A stretch of 22,204 nucleotides of DNA, from positions 1-22,204 of the IMG/VR virus record IMGVR_UViG_2703718843_000003; one strand, 5' to 3'. Below, one piece after another: positions 8,839 through 21,347 of this stretch. The notes beneath the pieces were generated by a model, which was not told where the DNA came from, ran no database searches, and saw only the letters and a program-made list of their open reading frames with translations. Positions within the stretch are counted from its first letter, which is position 1; each line of letters starts with the position of its first letter. Both the position numbers and the translations under genes were made by a program. The stretch is from a virus (lineage: Duplodnaviria; Heunggongvirae; Uroviricota; Caudoviricetes).

Positions 8839-9819
8839 TTATAACGTCACTCCGCCTTTTAGAGGATTCAGCGCGACGGCATTTTGCAGGTAGTCAGGCG
8901 CAAGGTGCGCATAGGCCATCGTCTGCTGAATGCTCGCATGTCCCAGAATCTGTTGCAGTGCGATTATATTGCCCCCATTCATCATGAAATGGCTTGCGAA
9001 TGTATGCCGCAGGATGTGGGTTGCCTGATTGGGTGGTATATCTGGCTTCACTCTGCGTAAAATCCCGCAAAACTTCTCATAATCAACTTTGAATAATTTA
9101 GCGCTGGCCTCCTCTTTAACTTTTTTCTCCAGTTCCTCAGAAATCGGCACGGTTCGCTTTTTACCGTTTTTGGTTTTCAGGAAGGTAACCCTGCAATTTG
9201 TAATCTGTGCTGGTTTTAGCGTGGCAACTTCCGTCCATCTTCCTCCAGTGCTCAGACATAAAAGTGCGACAAGTAAGTCATCACCATCCAAAACATTTAA
9301 CAGTTTTTCGATTTCTGCCTTTTCCAGGAACGTCATTTCAGGGTTGGCCTCCGCCAGTGGCGGCAGTCCGTGAATTGGGTGTTGCCCGGAAAATTCATCC
9401 AATTGAATTAATTTTGTGAACATGCCGGATAATCGGTACATGTCACGGTTTATCGTTGCGGCACTGATACCATTTCGTAGTCGCATGGAACGATAATCCA
9501 TCAAAGCTCTTTTGCTCATCCGGCTCACTGGTATATCACCTATGCCGCTGATGGTTTTGAGCAGATGATTAAACTCTTTTGTTCCATGCTCGTGGTTTTG
9601 CCCGTGATATTTCCACCAGATGTCCAGCAACTCACTCAAAGTTCTGCGATCTGCTCGCTGACCTGCCCATTCTTTCTGGCTGGCGTAGGCGATTGTGTAT
9701 CGCTCAAATGCTACAGCCTCAGCTTTTCTTTCAAATTTCCTGCGGATGCGTTTTCCGTCGCGACCGCGAGGTCTAATGTCCACTTCATAGCGTCCATCAT
9801 CGAGCTTCTTAATTGACAT
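8839..9819 (-). CDS. int: Tyrosine integrase (P2 Int family)
   Basis: Start MSIKKLDDGRYEVDIRPRGRDG matches the remembered P2 Int N-terminus; C-terminal catalytic region with HxLRHT (ATHILRHTFASH) and the conserved Tyr context (MAYAHLAP). Confidence 0.9.
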   Translation of the reverse strand: MSIKKLDDGRYEVDIRPRGRDGKRIRRKFERKAEAVAFERYTIAYASQKEWAGQRADRRTLSELLDIWWKYHGQNHEHGTKEFNHLLKTISGIGDIPVSRMSKRALMDYRSMRLRNGISAATINRDMYRLSGMFTKLIQLDEFSGQHPIHGLPPLAEANPEMTFLEKAEIEKLLNVLDGDDLLVALLCLSTGGRWTEVATLKPAQITNCRVTFLKTKNGKKRTVPISEELEKKVKEEASAKLFKVDYEKFCGILRRVKPDIPPNQATHILRHTFASHFMMNGGNIIALQQILGHASIQQTMAYAHLAPDYLQNAVALNPLKGGVTL

Positions 9820-9888
9820 AAGAAAGCCCTCTGACGCTGTATTCACCATCTTGGTAACAAATGGTGAAAATGTAATGTTTATAGAGTG

Positions 9889-10182
9889 TTAACCAGTCTG
9901 TTTTTCGGAGTGGTCTGATTCTGTTGGTTTTTGCCCAATGTGTGCGAGAGCCGGCGCGATCTGACCAGCTTGTGGTGACGTATCACCAGTCATTAACCAG
10001 AGCGTATATTTTTTAAATAAAGGCGTATTTGTGACTCGCATAACGATGCTGAGACCAGGGTCTTTATGCCCACTTTCGTAATTTTTGACTGTTCCTAGAG
10101 CTATCCCGCTAATTTCGCTGAATTTCGCCTGTGTTAAGCCTTCTGCTTTCCTAATCGCTTTCAGTTTTTCGAATGTCTGCAT
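9889..10182 (-). CDS. C: Immunity repressor C (P2 C family, HTH)
   Basis: 97 aa; N-terminal HTH and C-terminal TKYTLWLMTGD...QAGQIAPALAHIGQ match the remembered P2 C repressor; divergent from cox with face-to-face promoters. Confidence 0.85.
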   Translation of the reverse strand: MQTFEKLKAIRKAEGLTQAKFSEISGIALGTVKNYESGHKDPGLSIVMRVTNTPLFKKYTLWLMTGDTSPQAGQIAPALAHIGQKPTESDHSEKQTG

Positions 10183-10334: not shown

Positions 10335-10607
10335 ATGGAAGTCAATGACTATGTGATTCAGTACCCGATTGATGCGGTACATACGGTTAAGTTTGCAGAG
10401 TTACTTGGTAAGCCAGAAACGGCTGTAGTCAAGATGGTAAAAGAGAATAAATTGCCAGTTATTGAGCTTCGTGATCCAAGTAAGCCGAACGCTCGTGTCG
10501 GTGAGAAGTGGGTTTTCATTCCAGAGTTTAATCGCGCTGTACGAGAGGCGTTTTATAACCGACCAGTTGAACAGCGTGATGCATGGCTTTTGTGGATGGG
10601 GTTGTGA
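10335..10607 (+). CDS. cox: Cox (excisionase / lytic-switch repressor of Pc)
   Basis: 90 aa at the P2 cox position; KLPVIEL...GEKWVFIPEFN...RDAWLLWMGL resembles remembered P2 Cox. Confidence 0.8.
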   Translation: MEVNDYVIQYPIDAVHTVKFAELLGKPETAVVKMVKENKLPVIELRDPSKPNARVGEKWVFIPEFNRAVREAFYNRPVEQRDAWLLWMGL

Positions 10608-12091: not shown

Positions 12092-12363
12092 GTATTCGTA
12101 TCGAAATTGGCGAACGTTATGTCGTTACCAGTGACAGCTTTCAGTTTATTCTCCACGAGAAAAAGAGAGCGGAAAGCGGTAAAAACGCCGGTCAGGAGTG
12201 GCTGGCGGTGGTTGGTTATTACCCGAAATTAAGCCAGCTCGTTTCCGGCCTGATGCATCACGATATTCTGACCGGAAGCGCAAAGTCTTTTGCTGATTTA
12301 AACGCGCAGGTTGAGCAACTCAGCAAGCGTTGTTCAGAGGCTTTTGGCTCATATGACCGTTAA
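12088..12363 (+). CDS. Hypothetical protein (P2 orf83 position)
   Basis: 91-aa ORF overlapping the start of gene A. Confidence 0.5.
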   Translation: MSIRIEIGERYVVTSDSFQFILHEKKRAESGKNAGQEWLAVVGYYPKLSQLVSGLMHHDILTGSAKSFADLNAQVEQLSKRCSEAFGSYDR

Positions 12364-14629
12364 AGCCTCCGGGCATTTTGTCCCTCCGTCAGCATTTGCC
12401 GCAGGCACCGGTGAGACGTTTACCGGTGCTTATGCATGGAACGCGCCACGCGAGGCCGTCGGGCGCGAAAGACCCCTTACACGTGACGAGATGCGTCAGG
12501 TGCAAGGTGTTTTATCCACGATTAACCGCCTGCCTTACTTTTTGCGCTCGCTGTTTACTTCACGCTATGACTACATCCGGCGCAATAAAAGCCCGGTACA
12601 CGGGTTTTATTTCCTCACATCCACTTTTCAGCGTCGTTTATGGCCGCGCATTGAGCGCGTGAATCAGCGCCATGAAATGAACACCGACGCGTCGTTGCTG
12701 TTTCTGGCAGAGCGTGACCACTATGCGCGTCTGCCGGGGATGAATGACAAGGAGCTGAAAAAGTTTGCCGCCCGTATTTCATCGCAGCTTTTCATGATGT
12801 ATGAGGAACTCTGCGATGCCTGGGTGGATGCGCATGGCGAAAAAGAATCACTGTTTACGGATGAGGCGCAGGATCATCTGTATGGTCATGTTGCTGGCGC
12901 TGCACGTGCTTTCAATATTTCCCCGCTCTACTGGAAAAAATACCGTAAAGGACAGATAACCACGAGGCAGGCATATTCTGCCATTGCCCGCCTGTTTAAC
13001 GATGAGTGGTGGACTCATCAGCTTAAAGGCCAGCGTATGCGCTGGCATGAAGCGTTACTGATAGCTGTCGGGGAGGTCAATAAAGACCGTTCTCCTTATG
13101 CCAGTAAACATGCCATTCGTGATGTGCGTGCGCGCCGCCAGGCAAATCTGGAATTTCTTAAATCGTGTGACCTTGAAAACAGGGAAACCGGCGAGCGCAT
13201 CGACCTTATCAGTAAGGTGATGAGCAGTATTTCTAATCCTGAAATTCGCCGGATGGAGCTGATGAACACCATTGCCGGTATTGAGCGTTACGCCGCTGCA
13301 GAGGGTGATGTGGGGATGTTTATCACGCTGACCGCGCCGTCAAAGTATCACCCGACACGTCAGGTCGGAAAAGGCGAAAGTAAAACCGTCCAGCTTAATC
13401 ACGGCTGGAATGATGAGGCATTTAATCCAAAGGATGCGCAGCGATATCTCTGCCATATCTGGAGCCTGATGCGCACGGCATTCAAGGATAATGATTTACA
13501 GGTCTACGGTTTGCGAGTCGTCGAGCCACACCACGACGGAACGCCGCACTGGCATATGATGCTTTTTTGTAATCCACGCCAGCGTAACCAGATTATCGAA
13601 ATCATGCGTCGCTATGCGCTCAAAGAGGATGGCGACGAAAGAGGAGCCGCGCGAAACCGTTTTCAGGCAAAACACCTTAACCGGGGCGGTGCTGCGGGGT
13701 ATATCGCGAAATACATCTCAAAAAATATCGACGGCTATGCACTGGATGGTCAGCTCGATAACGATACCGGCAGACCGCTGAAAGACACTGCCGCGGCTGT
13801 TACCGCATGGGCGTCAACGTGGCGCATTCCGCAATTTAAAACGGTTGGCCTGCCGACAATGGGGGCTTACCGTGAACTACGCAAATTGCCTCGCGGCGTC
13901 AGCATTGCTGATGAGTTTGACGAACGCGTCGAGGCTGCACGCGCTGCCGCAGACAGTGGCGATTTTGCGCTGTATATCAGCGCGCAAGGTGGGGCAAATG
14001 TCCCGCGCGATTGTCAGACTGTCAGGGTTGCCCGTAGCCCGTCGGATGACGTTAACGAGTATGAGGAAGAAGTCGAGAGAGTGGTCGGCATTTACGCGCC
14101 TCATCTCGGCGCGCGTCATATTCATATCACCAGAACGACGGACTGGCGCATTGTGCCGAAAGTGCCAGTCGTTGAGCCTTTGACTTTAAAAAGCGGCATC
14201 GCCGCGCCTCGGAGTCCTGTCAATAACTGTGGAAAGCTCACCGGTGGTGATACTTCGTTACCGGCTCCCACACCTTCTGAACACGCCGCAGCAGTGCTTA
14301 ATCTGGTTGATGACGGTGTTATCGAATGGAATGACCCGGAGGTCGTGAGGGCGCTCAGGGGCGCATTAAAATACGGGCTGAGAACACCAAATCGTCAGCA
14401 GAGAAACGGAAGCCCGTTAAAACCACATGAAATTGCACCATCGGCCAGACTGACCCGGTCGGAAAGAATGCAAATTACCCGTATCCGCGTTGACCTTGCT
14501 CAGAACGGTATCAGGCCGCAGCGATGGGAGCTTGAGGCGCTGGCGCGTGGCGCGACCGTAAATTATGACGGGAAACCTTTCACTTATCAGGTCGCTGATG
14601 ATTGGCCGGGATTTTTGTTACCCATTTGA
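12353..14629 (+). CDS. A: Replication initiation endonuclease gpA (rolling-circle nickase)
   Basis: Start MTVKASGHFVPPSAFAAGTGETFTGAYAWNAPREAVGRERPLTRDEMRQ is near-identical to the remembered P2 gpA; contains the HUH-like GTPHWHMMLF region and the active-site Tyr region AGYIAKYISKNIDGYAL. Confidence 0.9.
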   Translation: MTVKASGHFVPPSAFAAGTGETFTGAYAWNAPREAVGRERPLTRDEMRQVQGVLSTINRLPYFLRSLFTSRYDYIRRNKSPVHGFYFLTSTFQRRLWPRIERVNQRHEMNTDASLLFLAERDHYARLPGMNDKELKKFAARISSQLFMMYEELCDAWVDAHGEKESLFTDEAQDHLYGHVAGAARAFNISPLYWKKYRKGQITTRQAYSAIARLFNDEWWTHQLKGQRMRWHEALLIAVGEVNKDRSPYASKHAIRDVRARRQANLEFLKSCDLENRETGERIDLISKVMSSISNPEIRRMELMNTIAGIERYAAAEGDVGMFITLTAPSKYHPTRQVGKGESKTVQLNHGWNDEAFNPKDAQRYLCHIWSLMRTAFKDNDLQVYGLRVVEPHHDGTPHWHMMLFCNPRQRNQIIEIMRRYALKEDGDERGAARNRFQAKHLNRGGAAGYIAKYISKNIDGYALDGQLDNDTGRPLKDTAAAVTAWASTWRIPQFKTVGLPTMGAYRELRKLPRGVSIADEFDERVEAARAAADSGDFALYISAQGGANVPRDCQTVRVARSPSDDVNEYEEEVERVVGIYAPHLGARHIHITRTTDWRIVPKVPVVEPLTLKSGIAAPRSPVNNCGKLTGGDTSLPAPTPSEHAAAVLNLVDDGVIEWNDPEVVRALRGALKYGLRTPNRQQRNGSPLKPHEIAPSARLTRSERMQITRIRVDLAQNGIRPQRWELEALARGATVNYDGKPFTYQVADDWPGFLLPI

Positions 14630-14814
14630 GTAAAAATACAGCGTGATTTTATATGTCTTTGAATGGATTATGCGAAGCACCTCTAAGGTAGATGAGGAGC
14701 AATAGTGTGTTGAATCAGAAGGCTAAATTGTATTGAATCGTTAGCATGTAATTGAAGGCAGCTATTTGATTCGAGTCATAAAAGAGCATCTATTTCGGTT
14801 AATAAAACCATTGC

Positions 14815-14860
14815 GAGTGACTTTATGTCGAAGCATAATTCATCTCGAGCGAAGTCTTGC
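14815..14860. repeat. Direct repeat copy 1 (GAGTGACT ... GAGCGAAGTCTTGC)
   Basis: Shares an 8-mer and a perfect 14-mer with copy 2 at 15100-15124; copy 1 has a 24-bp internal expansion. Confidence 0.45.
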
Positions 14861-14889
14861 TAGTCTTTCATCGGATTGATGACGGGCGC

Positions 14890-14919
14890 AAAAAAACCAC
14901 CCTGGCAGGTGGTTTTTTT
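14890..14919. terminator. Bidirectional rho-independent terminator (A7-CCACC..GGTGG-T7)
   Basis: Symmetric hairpin flanked by an A run and a T run; closes the replication operon on + and the small minus-strand ORF on -. Confidence 0.65.
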
Positions 14920-14931
14920 GTTTGAAGCATA

Positions 14932-15045
14932 CTAAAGAAAAATACTTACATGGATATTACTGACGTTTACTGACAAACCACTCGGACTACCATATGGATA
15001 GCCAAAGAGGGCCAGAACGAGAATGCAGTAATAGCACTTCTTCAT
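14932..15045 (-). CDS. Candidate 37-codon mini-gene encoding a small hydrophobic Cys-containing peptide
   Basis: Minus-strand AGGAGG SD 4 nt before ATG (15045); peptide MKKCYYCILVLALFGYPYGSPSGLSVNVSNIHVSIFL; stop TAG at 14932-14934 followed 13 nt later by the bidirectional terminator. Not in the ORF track (below its length cutoff). Coding status unproven. Confidence 0.3.
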   Translation of the reverse strand: MKKCYYCILVLALFGYPYGSPSGLSVNVSNIHVSIFL

Positions 15046-15099
15046 ATCGCCTCCTGTAAGCAGAGGGCAATTTCCGCCGATATATGCGCTTCTAAGGCG

Positions 15100-15124
15100 G
15101 AGTGACTATTGAGCGAAGTCTTGC
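15100..15124. repeat. Direct repeat copy 2 (GAGTGACTATTGAGCGAAGTCTTGC)
   Basis: See copy 1; the two copies bracket the terminator and the mini-ORF. Confidence 0.45.
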
Positions 15125-15701
15125 CCTGAAATAATGCTCTGTTTAAACGCAAAGTGATCTGGCATATCACTGAACAGAGAACCTGAACAACACAACATAT
15201 AGTATGTCGTTGTTTCTGGTTGCATTTTATGTTGTGTAATACTGGTTTTGCATCAAGGATGTTTGAGCTTTTTTTGATATAGCTCAAAGTAAAAAGCAGA
15301 GACTACGGATGATAAGGTCTTGAAAGCAATGTAAATTTTTTAAAGTTGTGAGTGGCTAGAAATGCACAGTTTCAATATGGCGGATTTAAACAAGTAATTA
15401 AAAATAGCGCCATAAATTCCAATAAAATCATTATGTTGCGTTTTCTGTGGAAACTGCGGTGACTCTGAAATTTTCTTTTAGTGTCGCTGAGGTTTAACAA
15501 CTCGCTGCGCAAGTAGTTAGTGTTTTTTTAACTCAATATCCTGATTTATAAGGTTTTTTATAAATCGTTGGCTGATTGCGCGTATTCATCTCGTGTTATC
15601 AGCAAAGATAAGCGCTATATGCAAAACTGAATGCATATATGATGTCGAAAATGTTATGGGAAAACGTGGATTAGTGTTATAGTAATGGCTGAAAAACAGC
15701 A

Positions 15702-15740
15702 TTGACATAAAATAACAACTGTGATATGGCTGTGCATACT
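15702..15740 (+). promoter_or_regulatory. Putative sigma70 promoter for the peptidase/membrane-protein pair
   Basis: TTGACA at 15702-15707; weak -10 candidates TATGGC (17-bp spacer, TG at -15/-14) or CATACT; about 30-60 bp upstream of a strong AGGAGG SD. Confidence 0.35.
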
Positions 15741-15766
15741 TAACTTTTTTAACGTAGGAGGCAACC

Positions 15767-16252
15767 ATGAGCTATGCAGCTAAAAAACTGCTTGACCGCT
15801 ATTGGGATCGCCGACTACCTGTCGATCCGTTTAAGCTTGCTAAAGCGTGGGGTGCTCGTGTTGAAGCACTTGAGGAATCGGCTTATAACAACGATGGGTT
15901 AAGCGGTCTGGCTGTCATCAAAAAGGGTGTCCATAGGATTTATTTTGATTCTAGTGAACATTCTAATCGTCAACGTTTTACTGTTGCACACGAGTTAGGT
16001 CATCATGTGCTGGGGCATACCCAGGACGGAGAGTACCATCGGGATAATGTCGGGAATTATTCAACAGGTGCTCGTGATTACCGTGAGGTTGAAGCAAACA
16101 AGTTTGCTGCTGAGTTGTTAATGCCTGAGTCTGCTATACGTCAATTGGTATCCAGAGAAGGTATTGATAGCACTTTGAGATTAGCAAGCATCTTTAATGT
16201 ATCAGAAGCCGCTATGCATTGGCGCTTAAAGAGCTTAGGAATGGCTTATTAA
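15767..16252 (+). CDS. ImmA/IrrE-family (M78-like) zinc metallopeptidase, orphan (no adjacent HTH partner)
   Basis: HEXXH motif H75-E-L-G-H79 followed by the family signature E107-V-E-A-N-K-F-A-A-E-L-L-M-P; ideal SD AGGAGG 5 nt upstream of ATG; AT-rich codon usage. Confidence 0.8.
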   Translation: MSYAAKKLLDRYWDRRLPVDPFKLAKAWGARVEALEESAYNNDGLSGLAVIKKGVHRIYFDSSEHSNRQRFTVAHELGHHVLGHTQDGEYHRDNVGNYSTGARDYREVEANKFAAELLMPESAIRQLVSREGIDSTLRLASIFNVSEAAMHWRLKSLGMAY

Positions 16253-16278
16253 TTAGCCTTTAACTTTTAACCTGTTTA

Positions 16279-16318
16279 AAATCACCTTTACGTTTGTACA
16301 TGTAAGGGTGATTTTTTT
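16279..16318 (+). terminator. Intergenic hairpin plus T7 tract (terminator/attenuator) that also contains the only SD-like sequence for the downstream gene
   Basis: AAATCACC (16279-16286) pairs with GGTGATTT (16307-16314), 20-nt loop, T run 16312-16318 ending at the ATG of the membrane-protein ORF; AAGGGTG in the 3' arm lies 8 nt before that ATG. Confidence 0.45.
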
Positions 16319-16918
16319 ATGGCTGATATTGATTTATCTGGACAGTCCCCAGAGCAAGGAACCACTCCTAAGGGCGATTTAGATCCTGATATCCTTATAA
16401 GGCGAGATCGACGCGATGGTATAGAGCGTAGAAGTATGCGATTAGTGCTCTCTGCCGTTGTGCTTTGTTTTGCTTGTACATTTCTATGGCAGGGGCTTAA
16501 CTTTGCTTTGGCTGTTGGAAATGGCTTGCTGGAAGCGAAAAGCAGTATTGCCACAGCGATAACACAAAAAGTAGATGCACAAACTTGTGTTTCAGCAGAA
16601 AAATGTTCTGCTTTATCTGCGGATCCGAAGATGGCTGATGAGAGGATAACACCATCTTCAGACACTAATAAAGTTAGAAAATCTATTTCTGGTTTATCCA
16701 CCGATTGGTTATCGGCCAGTTCTCTAATAGCTATTGTTGCATTCATCCTTGGTGTGGGTTTAACTTTGCTTTTGACTCTTCTTAAATCAGCATTTCAACA
16801 CCCGACAGATAAAGACTTTAGAACAAAGTCGACATCTAATACTATTGAGTTGGCCACGCCAATCAGTGAATTAATAATTGGTGTTCTGAATATAATTAAA
16901 GACAAACTATCTAAGTAA
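16319..16918 (+). CDS. Membrane protein with two predicted TM helices and a soluble N-terminal Arg/Asp-rich region
   Basis: Hydrophobic stretches RLVLSAVVLCFACTFLWQGLNFALAVG and LIAIVAFILGVGLTLLLTLL; no recognisable catalytic motif; 5' end uncertain (alternative Met at 16436). Confidence 0.65.
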   Translation: MADIDLSGQSPEQGTTPKGDLDPDILIRRDRRDGIERRSMRLVLSAVVLCFACTFLWQGLNFALAVGNGLLEAKSSIATAITQKVDAQTCVSAEKCSALSADPKMADERITPSSDTNKVRKSISGLSTDWLSASSLIAIVAFILGVGLTLLLTLLKSAFQHPTDKDFRTKSTSNTIELATPISELIIGVLNIIKDKLSK

Positions 16919-16959
16919 AGCATTAGTTGTGATTTTTTATTGGTTTTAGTGATAATACA

Positions 16960-16994
16960 TCTCCAGTACTTATTGCTACTGGAGAGTATTTTTA
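16960..16994. terminator. Bidirectional terminator between convergent cargo genes
   Basis: TCTCCAGTA-(8 nt loop)-TACTGGAGA perfect 9-bp stem followed by T-rich tract on +; 16 nt from the stop of the minus-strand 313-aa gene. Confidence 0.6.
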
Positions 16995-17000
16995 GTCGTT

Positions 17001-17942
17001 TTATATTTTTAATGTTAGTGAATGATATTCACGAGAGTTCACGTTCGATGTGATGTAATCGGGGGCGTTAACACCAAGAATCGCAACGAGCAATCGGCAA
17101 ATTAAAGCCTGCATTTGTTGTAATATGTCATCTCCATATTGATAATTGTTAATAGTGGTAAAGCCAAGTGGTTGACCATGAAACATAGCTTCATGAAAGT
17201 TTTCATTGCGGATGTTTGTAATGTTTTTTTTGCCTGTAACCCATGATGGTCGTGGTATGCCATAAGTTTTGCAGATCCACTTCAAGCGCCTGGAGTGATT
17301 TAGAGTCTTTTCTGTACACTTGTTCTTTTCTGCCCATGTTAAAGCAAAGCAACTATCCAGTGCCATATAAAGATACTGGAATTTTTCGAAGCTAAGGTAT
17401 TGTGGGTTTTGGGATAAAAATAGTGCATGCACTATTGCTGCTATATTTATTGGTGCGTGTTTGGTTTTTTTCTCGCTAGACATGTATTTGAGTGCTAATT
17501 CTATAACCTCTTTTTCAGAGCACTTGACCAGAATAAAGTCAGTTAATTTGCTGGGTTTTATTGGGGTTGCGTCTAAAAAACCGGCATCAGTAGTTGTTAA
17601 TCTTATCCCTTTGAAAAAAGACAGACACCACACAGCAAAATTGAGAGTTTCTAGTGAAGATGTATTTTTTAATTTTAGTGAGTGTGTTTTGGGTAAGCCA
17701 AATACTCGTTGGCTAAAAGGCATTGTGGATATGCCTCCATTGAGGTTATATACTTCTTGGTTTCCTGGGTATATCCAACCGTTAATAACATTTCTGTGAT
17801 TGTTTATAAGATTTGTTTTTTCCGCTAGACCGGGTAAAGTAAGTAAAGAAAAATCATCAGTTTCAACGTTAACCTCTACTGGATAGTATCCAAACTCAGC
17901 TTCAATATCATTGGATTGCTGTTCGTCAACTTTACCTTGCAT
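17001..17942 (-). CDS. Hypothetical 313-aa cargo protein, unknown family; possible HEPN-like R-x4-H motif
   Basis: Own SD (GGAG 6 nt before ATG 17942), AT-rich promoter-like sequences upstream, own terminator; R245-N-E-N-F-H250 (nt 17193-17210) fits the R-x4-6-H pattern of HEPN RNases, but no other HEPN evidence from inspection. Confidence 0.7.
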   Translation of the reverse strand: MQGKVDEQQSNDIEAEFGYYPVEVNVETDDFSLLTLPGLAEKTNLINNHRNVINGWIYPGNQEVYNLNGGISTMPFSQRVFGLPKTHSLKLKNTSSLETLNFAVWCLSFFKGIRLTTTDAGFLDATPIKPSKLTDFILVKCSEKEVIELALKYMSSEKKTKHAPINIAAIVHALFLSQNPQYLSFEKFQYLYMALDSCFALTWAEKNKCTEKTLNHSRRLKWICKTYGIPRPSWVTGKKNITNIRNENFHEAMFHGQPLGFTTINNYQYGDDILQQMQALICRLLVAILGVNAPDYITSNVNSREYHSLTLKI

Positions 17943-18179
17943 ACATTGCTCCGGTCAAAAATAGGCTCGATAATTCTCGTAAGCCTATCATGTTCGCAAA
18001 GTATCCATACCTGTGGATTTTGTAAATTTAAGTTGATTTGTCATTAAATAAGCCGTGCATGCAACAAGTGAATGTTTTTGCATGCGTCGGGGATGCCCGT
18101 TCCGGCTGCTTGCGGTCAGAGCTGGTGCGGATCCATAGTATCTAAGCAACTGCATTAAAACCGCCCTATGAAGCGGGCG

Positions 18180-18198
18180 GGCGAGGCGGGGAAAGCAC
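18180..18198. other. cos cohesive-end sequence GGCGAGGCGGGGAAAGCAC
   Basis: Exact match to the 19-nt cohesive end of P2/186/P4 as I remember it, located between the cargo island and gene Q, where cos lies in the circular P2 map. Confidence 0.7.
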
Positions 18199-18340
18199 TG
18201 CGCGCTGGCGGTGGTGCTGATTTTATTTTTTCAGCGTCTGAGCGCGTCGTGAAGGCGCTTAGTCTGCCCGTTGAGGCGTTGGTGTGTCTGCGGGGTGTTT
18301 TGTGCGGTGGTGAGCGTGTGAGGGCGTGATGACGGGGTGT

Positions 18341-18362
18341 AAAAAAGCCGCCCGCAGGCGGC
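18341..18362 (-). terminator. Terminator of the Q-P late transcript
   Basis: GCCGCC-CGCA-GGCGGC hairpin preceded on + by A6 (a U tract after the hairpin on the minus-strand transcript), 5 nt past the Q stop. Confidence 0.5.
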
Positions 18363-18367
18363 GATGT

Positions 18368-19402
18368 TCAGCCGTTGTCAGTGTCCAGTGAGTAGTTTTT
18401 AAAGCGGATGACCTCCTGACCGAGCCAGCCGTTTATCTCGCGGATCCTGTCCTGTAGCGGGATAAGCTCATTGCGGACAAAGACCTTTGCCACTTTCTCA
18501 ATATCACCCAGCGACCCGACGTTCTCCGGCTTGCCGCCCATCAACTGAAAGGGGATGCGGTGCGCGTCCAGCAGGTCAGCGGCGCTGGCTTTTTTGATAT
18601 TAAAAAAATCGTCCTTCGTCGCCACTTCACTGAGCGGGATAATTTTAATGCCGTCGGCTTTCCCCTGCGGGGCATAGAGAAACAGGTTTTTAAAGTTGTT
18701 GCGGCCTTTCGACTTCACCATGTTTTCGCGGAGCACTTCGATATCGTTGCGATCCTGCACGGCATCGGTGACGTACATGATGTATCCGGCATGTGCGCCG
18801 TTTTCGTAATACTTGCGGCGGAACAGCGTGGCCGACTCATTCAGCCAGGCAGAGTTAAGGGCGCTGAGATATTCCGGCAGGCCGTACAGCTCCTGATTAA
18901 TATCCGGCTCCAGCAGGTGAAACACGGAGCCGGGCGTGAAGGCTGTCGGCTCGTTGAAGGACGGCACCCACCAGTAAACATCCTCCTCCACGCCACGACG
19001 GGTATATTTGGCCGGTGAGGTTTCCAGTCTGATGACCTTACCGGTGGTGCTGTAACGCTTTTCCAGAAACGCATTACCGAACACCAGAAAATCCAGCACA
19101 AAGCGGCTGAAATCCTGCTGGGAAAGCCACGGATGCGGGATAAATGTCGAGGCCAGAATATTACGTTTGACGTAAATCGGGGAGCTGTGATGCACGGCAG
19201 CACGCAGGCTTTTTGCCAGACCGGTAAAGCTGATTGGTGGCTCATACCATCTGCCGTTACTGATGCACTCGACGTAATCCAGAATGTCACGGCGGTCGAG
19301 TACCGGCACCGGCTCACCAAAGGTGAATGCCTCCATTTTCGGGGCGCTGGCGGTCATTTTTTTTGCCGCAGGTTGCGGTGTTTTCCCTTTTTTCTTGCTC
19401 AT
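18368..19402 (-). CDS. Q: Portal protein gpQ
   Basis: 344 aa; position next to cos and downstream of P with TGATG stop/start overlap; sequence resembles remembered P2 Q. Confidence 0.9.
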   Translation of the reverse strand: MSKKKGKTPQPAAKKMTASAPKMEAFTFGEPVPVLDRRDILDYVECISNGRWYEPPISFTGLAKSLRAAVHHSSPIYVKRNILASTFIPHPWLSQQDFSRFVLDFLVFGNAFLEKRYSTTGKVIRLETSPAKYTRRGVEEDVYWWVPSFNEPTAFTPGSVFHLLEPDINQELYGLPEYLSALNSAWLNESATLFRRKYYENGAHAGYIMYVTDAVQDRNDIEVLRENMVKSKGRNNFKNLFLYAPQGKADGIKIIPLSEVATKDDFFNIKKASAADLLDAHRIPFQLMGGKPENVGSLGDIEKVAKVFVRNELIPLQDRIREINGWLGQEVIRFKNYSLDTDNG

Positions 19403-21174
19403 CAGTAAAACTCCAGAATGGTGGATGTCAGCGGGGTGCTGATACCGGCGGTGAGTGGCTCATTTAACAGGGCGTGCATGGTCGCCCAGGCGAGGTCGGC
19501 GTGGCTGGCTTCCTCGCTGCGGCTGGCCTCATAGGTGGCGCTGCGTCCGCTGCTGGTCATGGTCTTGCGGATAGCCATAAACGAGCTGGTGATGTCGGTG
19601 GCGCTGACGTCATATTCCAGACAGCCACGACGGATAACGTCTTTTGCCTTGAGCACCATTGCGGTTTTCATTTCCGGTGTGTAGCGGATATCGCGCGCGG
19701 CGGGATAGAACGAGCGCACGAGCTGGAACACGCCGACACCGAGGCCGGTGGCATCAATACCGATGTATTCGACGTTATATTTTTCGGTGAGTTTGCGGAT
19801 GGATTCAGCCTGGGTGGCAAAGTCCATGCCTTTCCACTGGTGACTCTCAAGTATTCTGAATTTGCCTCCGGCCACTACCGGCGGTGCCAGTACCACGCAT
19901 CCGGCGCTGTCGCCACGGTGTGACGGGTCGTAACCAATCCAGACCGGGCGGGAGCCGAACGGATTCGCGGCAAACGGCGCATAGTCTTCCCATTCTTCCA
20001 GCGTGTCGACCATGCAGCGTTGCAGCTCCTCGAACGGGAACACCGACGCCTTGTCGTCAACAAATTCACACATGAACAGGTTTTTAAAATCGTCGGCGCT
20101 GTTTTCGCGTTTAAGCTGCTCAATGTCGAACAGCGTGCAGCCACCTTTCAGGGCGTCCTCAATGGTGACAATCTGCCGCCACTGGCCGTCCGCACAGAGA
20201 AGCCCACCGGCAAGGGCGTTATGACTGACGTCGATTTCCACACGTTCGGCGGCGCTGGCGCGTCCCCGGTTGAACAGTTCACCCGACCAGAACGGGTAGG
20301 CGTCGTGCGCCAGCGTGGACGGGGTGGAGAAATAGGTCGAGCGCAGGTGACTCTGTGAGGCCATACCTGATGCCACCTTACGCAGTACCTGAAAATTCGG
20401 GATCCAGAAAATCTCGTCGACGTACAGGTCACCGTTATGGCTCTGTGCGGTGTTGGAGTTGGTGCCGAGAAAAATCAGTTTTGCGCCGTTATTGCCCAGG
20501 ACAATCGGGTCACCGGTCAGGTCAACGTCAACCAGCCGGGCAAAGGCGATGATGTATTCGCGGAACACATACGCCTGCGTTTTACTGGCCGACAGAAAAA
20601 TCTGGTTATGACCGGTTTTCAGGGCGCGCAGCAGCGCCTCGCGGGAAAAATAAAACGTTGCGCCAATCTGGCGGGATTTCAGGATATCGCGGATGCGGTG
20701 CTCAAGCCCGGCGCGATACCAGTGCAACTGATATTCGAAAGACTGCTCAAAGAAAATCTGCTCCAGCTTTTCGATGGCCTCGTCACTGAAAAAATTCTTT
20801 TTCGGTTTGCGACGCCCGCCTTTGTTGCGGTTAGCGACGTTCGGATTAAGGTCTGCCTCGTTGCCGGTCTGGCTGTAGCGGTTTACCCGTGCCAGTCGTT
20901 CAATCTGGCGTCCGAGCAGGTCAATTTCCTTGAAGTCACCGCCGGTTTTCTGCGGTTTGATGATGAGCTGGGTCAGCCGCGCTTCCAGGCTCATTTCGAC
21001 ACGGCTGATGGGGGCAACACTGTCCCAGCCGTCGCGCTGTTTCCAGCTCTGCACCGTCGGGCGTTTCATCTGCAACATGGCGGCAATCTGCGGCACGGAA
21101 AAACCCTGCCAGTACAGCAGCGCCGCCTGACGACGCGGGTCGTGTAAAAGAGTGGTGTCTGTGGTGATGGTCAT
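19402..21174 (-). CDS. P: Terminase ATPase (large) subunit gpP
   Basis: Start MTITTDTTLLHDPRRQAALLYWQG with GAGG SD 5 nt upstream; ATPase and nuclease-type regions; divergent from O as in P2. Track start 21204 is an upstream extension. Confidence 0.9.
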   Translation of the reverse strand: MTITTDTTLLHDPRRQAALLYWQGFSVPQIAAMLQMKRPTVQSWKQRDGWDSVAPISRVEMSLEARLTQLIIKPQKTGGDFKEIDLLGRQIERLARVNRYSQTGNEADLNPNVANRNKGGRRKPKKNFFSDEAIEKLEQIFFEQSFEYQLHWYRAGLEHRIRDILKSRQIGATFYFSREALLRALKTGHNQIFLSASKTQAYVFREYIIAFARLVDVDLTGDPIVLGNNGAKLIFLGTNSNTAQSHNGDLYVDEIFWIPNFQVLRKVASGMASQSHLRSTYFSTPSTLAHDAYPFWSGELFNRGRASAAERVEIDVSHNALAGGLLCADGQWRQIVTIEDALKGGCTLFDIEQLKRENSADDFKNLFMCEFVDDKASVFPFEELQRCMVDTLEEWEDYAPFAANPFGSRPVWIGYDPSHRGDSAGCVVLAPPVVAGGKFRILESHQWKGMDFATQAESIRKLTEKYNVEYIGIDATGLGVGVFQLVRSFYPAARDIRYTPEMKTAMVLKAKDVIRRGCLEYDVSATDITSSFMAIRKTMTSSGRSATYEASRSEEASHADLAWATMHALLNEPLTAGISTPLTSTILEFY

Positions 21175-21347
21175 GAATACCTCGCCGTGATGAATACACG
21201 GCAAGGCTACTGAGTCGCGACCTGCGATTCGCTAAGGTGCTGTTGTGTCAGTGATAAGCCATCCGGGACTGATGGCGGAGGATGCGCATCGTCGGGAAAC
21301 TGATGCCGACATGTGACTCCTCTAATCACTATTCAGGACTCCTGACA
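21175..21347. promoter_or_regulatory. Divergent late-promoter region between P and O (expected Ogr-dependent promoters)
   Basis: Position corresponds to the divergent late promoters of P2 (established map); contains inverted repeat GCCGTG-N7-CACGGC at 21184-21202. No exact TGT-N12-ACA element found by eye. Confidence 0.35.

Follow-up and report, generated by a model that had tools for sequence, protein, structure and literature searches.

An ImmA/IrrE-family peptidase gene paired with a two-helix membrane protein gene in a P2-like prophage cargo hotspot and other mobile elements

Introduction

The ImmA/IrrE (M78) peptidases that have been characterized cut soluble regulators and are activated by a signal. 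In the CapH/CapP, ImmR/ImmA, and DdrO/IrrE systems, the peptidase gene adjoins the gene of the protein that is acted upon. CapP joins a peptidase, a helix-turn-helix (HTH)-like linker, and a GAF domain in a chain of 291 amino acids (aa), and its cleavage site in CapH has been mapped between Phe82 and Arg83; the cleavage sites of ImmR and DdrO likewise follow a hydrophobic residue (Phe, Leu). In RosmerTA modules, an M78-domain protein, RmrA, is the antitoxin of a variable toxin, and the toxin RmrT of Gordonia phage Kita is membrane targeted and depolarizing, with defense against just 2 BASEL phages. Here, we describe two adjacent genes, encoding an ImmA/IrrE-family peptidase and a membrane protein with two transmembrane (TM) helices, in a 22,204-nucleotide stretch of viral DNA (positions 1 to 22,204 of IMG/VR record IMGVR_UViG_2703718843_000003; referred to below as the window). 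We tentatively propose, at slightly less than an even chance, that the pair is a protease-controlled, dose-sensitive membrane effector in which the peptidase acts on the cytoplasmic tail of its partner.

The pair is catalogued already but is uncharacterized. It lies in the cos-proximal gpA-gpQ "old/tin" hotspot of P2-like prophages, which holds a variable cargo of defense and other accessory genes (Rousset et al. 2022). In that study, the same two genes at the same locus were named "Peptidase + TM," and the allele of E. coli TA280 with its native 1.1-kb upstream region was cloned on a low-copy plasmid (pFR104) in MG1655; the window differs in carrying the commoner allele and an extra convergent, HEPN-like gene. 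The pFR104 insert start, as printed in Table S2, reads as phage P2DC1 from the end of gene A onward, and Table S5A lists the peptidase accession WP_000119270 at least 23 times (Rousset et al. 2022). Our literature search returned no paper on the pair beyond this one, which gave a name and a negative screen only. The ClpP-dependent toxin-antitoxin module (Rousset 2020) was considered as a match to the pair and is a different system. New here are the breadth of the association between the two genes, a conserved motif at the N terminus of the membrane protein, its invariant second TM helix, a hairpin between the genes, and the separation of the pair from two neighboring cargo modules.

Results

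The two genes are inherited together

An earlier note on this DNA, made from the sequence alone, had placed the pair at positions 15767 to 16918, and both open reading frames (ORFs) were confirmed there, at 15767 to 16252 and 16319 to 16918. All 36 examined loci with a peptidase homologue have the membrane protein gene directly downstream and none has an HTH neighbor, while in all 27 loci with the membrane protein gene the peptidase gene lies directly upstream. The gene order was constant in every sampled context, with the peptidase first. The pair is carried by P2-, Mu-, and lambda-like prophages, one plasmid, and chromosomal islands in Gamma-, Beta-, and Deltaproteobacteria. The carriers include Klebsiella 186/P2-like prophages (loci L004 to L006), an Enterobacter plasmid island with DprA-, Zeta-toxin-, HNH-, and YobI-ATPase-family neighbors (L007 to L009), a Vibrio harveyi element with serine recombinases on its flanks (L010 to L012), a Serratia chromosomal island between phn and nrdDG (L013 and L014), and 14 viral contigs from a viral-contig scan (L015 to L028). 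Peptidases of ~160 aa that are 42 to 51% identical, each with the same kind of partner, were found in seven further sources, namely, an Aeromonas Mu-like prophage, a Klebsiella grimontii prophage end, a P2-like contig after ogr, a Pseudomonas aeruginosa lambdoid prophage, Alcaligenes, Cupriavidus, and Maridesulfovibrio.

Sequence identity drops in parallel in the two proteins, from 100 through 87, 64, and 46 to 42% for the peptidase against 100, 55 to 63, 45, ~40, and 30% for the partner. In phage P2DC1 (L002), for example, the peptidase is 87% and the partner 55% identical, and the convergent HEPN-like gene of the window is missing. Among 5,426 complete E. coli genomes, 50 (~1%) carry the pair, with both genes annotated in all 50, and the window allele accounts for 47 of these. 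A scan of species-representative genomes with the membrane protein profile gave 52 pattern matches, none of which was confirmed by tblastn. Collectively, these findings establish the pair as a real co-inherited and co-diverging unit whose architecture extends beyond recognizable sequence similarity. The earlier note had asked whether the two genes occur together elsewhere, and had named their failure to do so, or an HTH gene beside the pair in relatives, as reasons to abandon its reading; neither was found, because the pair is co-inherited without an HTH gene.

A minimal form of the pair is present in the P. aeruginosa prophage (L031/L032, 2507 to 4434), where proteins of 170 and 135 aa are encoded with a 13-nt gap, the periplasmic loop of the partner is almost nil, and there is no hairpin. 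The assembly collection indexes its peptidase in 129 blocks, which suggests that the prophage is common, and this version would be a convenient minimal model system.

No HTH gene adjoins the pair

That no HTH gene is adjacent on either strand, as the earlier note had said, held in searches of every ORF of at least 30 aa between 14630 and 17000, including nine small ORFs at 14630 to 16746 on both strands; none matched an HTH family. The nearest HTH gene is that of the prophage C repressor (9889 to 10182, minus strand), 5.6 kb from the pair. A hidden HTH protein or small regulator 5' of the peptidase gene was considered and rejected: no ORF is conserved among six contexts in the region ahead of the gene, and the small ORFs near the pair match no family. 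An Rfam search of 14000 to 18800 gave sub-threshold chance matches only.

These results bear on the possibility that the pair is a conventional ImmA/ImmR-type switch, with an HTH substrate that escaped notice or is encoded at another site in the prophage. The C repressor of P2 would be an obvious candidate, being an Xre-type HTH_3 protein of the same class as ImmR. However, it is encoded 5.6 kb away, the small ORFs near the pair contain no HTH, and elsewhere, including a plasmid and chromosomal islands, the pair is accompanied by regulators other than those of P2 or by no visible regulator. The adjacent cognate HTH repressor of ImmA/ImmR-type systems is absent from the window and from related loci, and the invariable neighbor of the peptidase gene is instead the membrane protein gene. 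We therefore consider a conventional switch very improbable.

The first gene encodes a peptidase core

The upstream gene (15767 to 16252, plus strand) encodes a protein of 161 aa (RefSeq WP_000119270). The earlier note had assigned it to the ImmA/IrrE family, and the Pfam match to Peptidase_M78 (PF06114; 75.6 bits against a gathering cut-off of 22, E = 3.8e-21) bears this out, as a zinc metallopeptidase of family M78; it is also assigned to PHROG 87, metallo-protease. The top PADLOC match is capP (1e-30), aligned over positions 8 to 153 of the 242-position profile. The nearest solved structures are CapP (7T5T) and IrrE (3DTE), and the match to 7T5T spans residues 75 to 155 of the 291-aa chain. 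The HELGH active-site motif (15989 to 16003, plus strand) supplies the residues H75, E76, and H79 singled out by the earlier note, and E107 (16085 to 16087, plus strand) is the probable third zinc ligand, as the H..H..E spacing is that of the CapP zinc ligands His96, His100, and Glu129. H75, E76, H79, and E107 are unchanged across 67 homologues. Judged by its sequence, the ORF encodes an intact zinc peptidase, with predicted activity, that is the peptidase core only.

The peptidase thus shares its fold and the HExxH...E zinc site with CapP, ImmA, and IrrE, but at 161 against 291 aa it lacks the HTH-like linker and the GAF domain of CapP. The pair likewise has neither a divergent capH gene nor a regulated downstream operon such as CBASS; its neighborhood consists of gpA, a non-coding stretch, the membrane protein gene, and the HEPN-like gene. 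Where the described systems have an HTH partner, the neighbor here is an integral membrane protein.

The closest known kind of system is RosmerTA, with the HTH domain missing here. The window peptidase matches 16 PADLOC RmrA profiles, in each case over the C-terminal peptidase part alone (e.g., 146 to 267 of 363), whereas RmrA has an N-terminal HTH domain and the window peptidase has none by Pfam. Both are two-gene modules of mobile elements that combine an M78/ImmA protein with a fast-evolving partner of unknown family. In contrast to the variable RosmerTA toxins, the partner here belongs to one specific two-TM family with an N-terminal motif, and the peptidase gene always comes first. The two-gene architecture typical of RosmerTA is strictly conserved in the pair, with the toxicity of the partner putative. 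The term "orphan" used in the earlier note is therefore apt in that the peptidase lacks an HTH neighbor, but not otherwise, as the pair is already catalogued and resembles RosmerTA-type modules.

The partner has a conserved core and a variable periplasmic loop

The downstream gene (16319 to 16918, plus strand) encodes a protein of 199 aa (WP_000763339) whose sole assignment is PHROG 8096 (function unknown); no Pfam, NCBIfam, or PADLOC family was matched. In a search of 1.84 billion representative proteins, its family comprised only 58 clusters at 50% identity. The two TM helices recognized in the earlier note are supported by hydropathy, by charge counts, and by an AlphaFold2 model with helices at residues 23 to 88, 116 to 159, and 182 to 198 and with disordered residues 1 to 22. 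We infer a topology in which both the N and the C termini are cytoplasmic.

Conservation was assessed in an alignment of 28 sequences (A3), Vibrio members included. TM1 (approximately residues 42 to 66; 16442 to 16516, plus strand), defined by hydropathy and charge counts, is preceded by an arginine-rich juxtamembrane segment, ERRSMR, and contains a conserved FL..GL. TM2 (approximately residues 127 to 155; 16697 to 16783, plus strand) carries the near-invariant AFILGVGLTLLLTLLK and holds eleven invariant columns. A conserved cytoplasmic amphipathic helix (ELATPISELI...IKDKLSK; 16862 to 16912, plus strand), seen in the alignment and as the last helix of the AlphaFold2 model, forms the C terminus, and distant partners carry an equivalent Lys-rich C-terminal helix. 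The periplasmic loop ranges from a few residues up to roughly 90 to 110 and is the least conserved part of the protein. Since this loop is so variable, the conserved core lies in the cytoplasm or in the membrane, and the conserved parts would therefore be within reach of a cytoplasmic peptidase.

At the N terminus, residues 4 to 7 (I-D-L-S; 16328 to 16339, plus strand) belong to a motif with the consensus D-[L/Y/F]-[S/A]-x-[G/P], a candidate docking or cleavage site. D5 is invariant in the alignment. The motif is present in 58 of the 86 family members that have an N-terminal tail, whereas shuffled tails would give 19.7, an approximately threefold enrichment; its hydrophobic position is occupied by L (44 members), Y (7), or F (5). 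It occurs also in the Pseudomonas, Aeromonas, Alcaligenes, and Cupriavidus partners. A Pro/Gln-rich linker follows the motif, and the whole N-terminal tail measures 25 to 149 residues across the family.

Public gene calls of the membrane protein frequently start at the wrong codon. Starts at an internal Met drop the entire N-terminal tail (as in the 160-aa call in P2DC1, L002 3363 to 3842), and starts at an ATG inside the intercistronic hairpin add a spurious MVIFFM- extension; examples of wrong starts, besides that in L002, are L022/L024 at 4001, P0004, P0017 to P0019, and P0021. Because of both kinds of error, the conserved motif is hidden in databases.

The distribution of conserved residues also bears on whether the pair might be non-toxic and serve lysogenic conversion or superinfection exclusion, a device in which the membrane protein would block DNA entry or alter the envelope and the peptidase would merely mature it or turn it over. 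A membrane location fits such a role, as does the cloning of the pair without reported toxicity (Rousset et al. 2022). The P. aeruginosa pair, moreover, lies directly 3' of an S24-domain, CI-like gene on the same strand. Exclusion genes that are expressed in the lysogen, e.g., lambda rexAB, sit downstream of the CI gene. An exclusion protein would, however, be expected to expose defined loops, and here the periplasmic part is least conserved, almost absent in some members, and evidently dispensable, so that neither periplasmic sensing nor exclusion is a likely role for the protein. Strong damping of expression, as described below, would be unexpected for a protective structural protein, and the cloned pair gave no protection against eight phages, the P2-like phage 186 among them. 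Taken together, we regard such a device as quite improbable.

A hairpin between the genes may limit synthesis of the membrane protein

The pair is preceded by a low-confidence candidate promoter on the plus strand (15702 to 15730), composed of TTGACA, a 17-nt spacer, and TGaTATGGC, an extended -10 element with a weak hexamer. This block is kept in the P2-type relatives (window, P2DC1, and Klebsiella) but not in the plasmid, Serratia, and Vibrio contexts, and a consensus promoter scan did not return it. The peptidase gene has a Shine-Dalgarno sequence, AGGAGG (15756 to 15761, plus strand), in which GGAG is invariant in six aligned contexts.

The gap between the two genes is 66 nt and contains a 16-bp hairpin (16278 to 16315; fold energy, -20.9 kcal/mol; z = -4.55), which with its U-run (16278 to 16318, plus strand) reaches the ATG of the membrane protein gene and has a Shine-Dalgarno-like GGGUGA within its 3' arm. 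A hairpin, U-run, and buried Shine-Dalgarno sequence were found in 14 of 15 distinct intergenic sequences, with four unrelated stem sequences (AUCACC..., GCCCUCA, GCCACCU, and GCCACC(C/U)). The z-scores of the intergenic folds are mostly about -3 to -7, the two weakest being -1.1 and -2.0. Of 13 base pairs in the enterobacterial hairpins, 2 have changed on both sides in a compensatory manner, and all core pairs are preserved. The structure looks like a terminator or a translational attenuator. Because the hairpin and the buried Shine-Dalgarno sequence precede the partner gene, less partner than peptidase would be made, and keeping the membrane protein scarcer than the peptidase is what would be expected of a harmful product. 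A bidirectional terminator-like hairpin, found by a terminator scan of both strands, closes the pair (16960 to 16985) between the stop codons of the membrane protein gene and the convergent gene.

The hairpin also helps to judge whether the peptidase might instead be an effector or anti-repressor with an unlinked substrate, either the repressor of a rival phage or a host protein (compare Lit, which cuts EF-Tu), with the membrane protein anchoring, sequestering, or regulating it, for instance through the motif as a pseudo-substrate. The soluble substrates of all characterized M78 peptidases are in keeping with this, the N-terminal motif is equally explicable as an inhibitory pseudo-substrate, and a prophage location suits inter-phage warfare. 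Yet a stoichiometric inhibitor or anchor would be expected in amounts at least equal to those of the enzyme, whereas the hairpin damps the membrane protein gene and not the peptidase gene. The near-invariant TM2 furthermore suggests an independent function for the membrane protein. The pair co-resides with the HTH_3 C repressor of P2, 186 CI-family, S24 CI-like, and Mu-like Mor/GemA regulators, and no repressor was seen with the plasmid-island pair; a common unlinked repressor substrate is unlikely because the regulators of these elements are so different. We consider an unlinked substrate, although it is the chief rival reading, unlikely overall.

Prophage context and neighboring cargo

The window is an E. 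coli P2-like prophage with 100% identity to strain AH21. In addition to the C repressor gene, it contains genes for the integrase (8839 to 9849, minus strand), Cox (10335 to 10607, plus strand), replication protein A (12311 to 14629, plus strand), portal protein Q (18368 to 19402, minus strand), and the terminase (19402 to 21204, minus strand). Between genes A and Q, the G+C content falls from ~55% to 37 to 41%, and the cargo consists of an unannotated stretch of ~700 bp, the pair, and the convergent HEPN-like gene. The hotspot location, this third cargo gene, and the hairpin between the pair genes are not mentioned in the earlier note.

The ~700-bp stretch (14630 to 15350) lies directly 3' of gene A. 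It is present in 150 of the 5,426 complete E. coli genomes, ~100 of them without the pair, and in strain PK5074 it is the only annotated-gene-free occupant of the hotspot. The pFR104 clone of Rousset et al. 2022 also contained it. It holds a strong bidirectional terminator (~14882 to 14920), a 14-nt direct repeat GAGCGAAGTCTTGC, and, on the minus strand (15045 to 14932), a hydrophobic ORF of 37 aa, MKKCYYCILVLALFGYPYGSPSGLSVNVSNIHVSIFL, whose ribosome-binding site is AGGAGG. Four variants, with nucleotide identity down to 87%, keep this ORF intact. No Rfam family matched the stretch. It could encode a small toxin and a small RNA, as in a type I toxin-antitoxin-like module.

The convergent gene (17001 to 17942, minus strand) encodes a protein of 313 aa, ORF313 of P2-EC67 (PHROG 5937). 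Its homologues number more than 600, all of the named ones from Gammaproteobacteria, and it carries an invariant R245-x4-H250 motif; no Pfam or PADLOC match was found. ORF313 is probably a candidate defense or abortive-infection protein of the HEPN RNase type. It was considered as a third component of the pair and rejected, as it is absent from most pair loci and occurs in P2-EC67 without the pair and with different neighbors; it is an independent single-gene cargo.

Other loci also have further genes near the pair. In Serratia (L013/L014, 8463 to 10246), a classical Rosmer-like pair, consisting of a 223-aa protein followed by a 371-aa HTH_3 and Peptidase_M78 protein, lies 1.8 kb downstream of the peptidase/two-TM pair, so that the island between phn and nrdDG holds two different M78 modules. 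In Enterobacter (L007/L009, 6631 to 7545), a 304-aa gene of no known family lies 3' of the pair in the same orientation; ORF313 is not a relative of it, and in L008 it is apparently split into genes of 90 and 231 aa.

Discussion

A peptidase acting on its membrane partner could account for the anatomy of the pair as follows. The pair would be a self-contained accessory ("moron") module carried by temperate phages and by other mobile elements. Its ImmA-type peptidase would act directly on the N-terminal cytoplasmic tail of the two-TM partner, the latter replacing the usual HTH repressor. The membrane protein would be a dose-sensitive effector, presumably a permeabilizing or depolarizing toxin that assembles via the invariant TM2, and the terminator-like hairpin, which also buries the ribosome-binding site, would hold its synthesis below that of the peptidase. 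By docking on or cutting at the D-[L/Y/F]-S motif, the peptidase would switch the effector, and the outcome may be abortive infection or an addiction-type conflict function. The damping hairpin and the conserved motif are compatible with a peptidase that acts on a dose-sensitive membrane partner, and the hydrophobic residue of the motif (L, Y, or F) matches in kind the P1 residue, Phe82, of the mapped CapH site.

The direction of the switch may be either of two. Activation by clipping upon a trigger is favored because other M78 peptidases are signal-activated. Constant neutralization, in which the peptidase would be the antitoxin, like RmrA of RosmerTA, would be almost equally possible, and such a role agrees equally well with the gene order and dosage control. 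A more specific version, in which a widespread branch of the M78 family, spanning Proteobacteria and several phage types, has taken a membrane protein tail as its substrate and a cut at D-[L/Y/F]-S gates a small pore-forming effector, is possible but on the doubtful side; the pair would then be a minimal protease-triggered membrane "kill switch" with a logic analogous to gasdermin activation. The idea that the cut exposes L, Y, or F as a new N terminus, and thereby an N-degron, was dropped as speculation, because the mapped M78 site, that of CapH, has its hydrophobic residue at P1.

Bacterial gasdermins with adjacent proteases and lambda RexA/RexB also place the gene of a cytoplasmic sensor or enzyme beside that of a membrane effector, in a defense or prophage setting. 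The likeness is an analogy only; there is no sequence or fold similarity, the peptidase family is different, and the partner here is a constitutive two-TM protein instead of a soluble pro-toxin.

Four observations weigh against a protease-controlled membrane effector. First, pFR104 had no activity against the eight coliphages, as listed among the "additional tested systems" in Table S2B (Rousset et al. 2022). The earlier note had suggested a protease-gated membrane effector, and while the strict pairing, the motif, and the hairpin fit that suggestion, this screen of the TA280 allele revealed no defense. A panel of eight phages is, however, too small to exclude a narrow defense range such as that of the RosmerTA toxin. 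Second, a fold search with the model of the membrane protein returned nothing meaningful (best E-value, 6.9). Third, the hairpin is absent from the minimal versions in Pseudomonas, Alcaligenes, Cupriavidus, and Maridesulfovibrio, in which the genes abut or overlap. Fourth, in Salmonella Infantis CP148870 (L035), a 1-bp deletion in a GGGG run (at approximately window position 16012) frameshifts the peptidase after HELGHHVLG, with the membrane protein gene and ORF313 intact. If real, this frameshift is a natural knock-out of the peptidase that the cell tolerates, counts against the peptidase as an indispensable antitoxin, and weakly favors a trigger-activated cut; it may be a sequencing error, since it is a 1-bp change in a G-run of a single genome. 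A truncated peptidase in a metagenome contig (L036) was dismissed because the assembly coverage is just 3x.

Should the pair prove inert, it would stay a catalogued hotspot gene pair of unknown function. The motif, the catalytic residues, and the deletable hairpin make the proposed action of the peptidase on the membrane protein directly testable. If the peptidase does act in this way, the ImmA/IrrE family would gain its first partner that is embedded in the membrane and is not a repressor. At 161 plus 199 aa, the pair would be among the smallest two-gene modules of such a type, and its action would explain a recurrent silent occupant of phage cargo hotspots that is found in ~1% of complete E. 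coli genomes.

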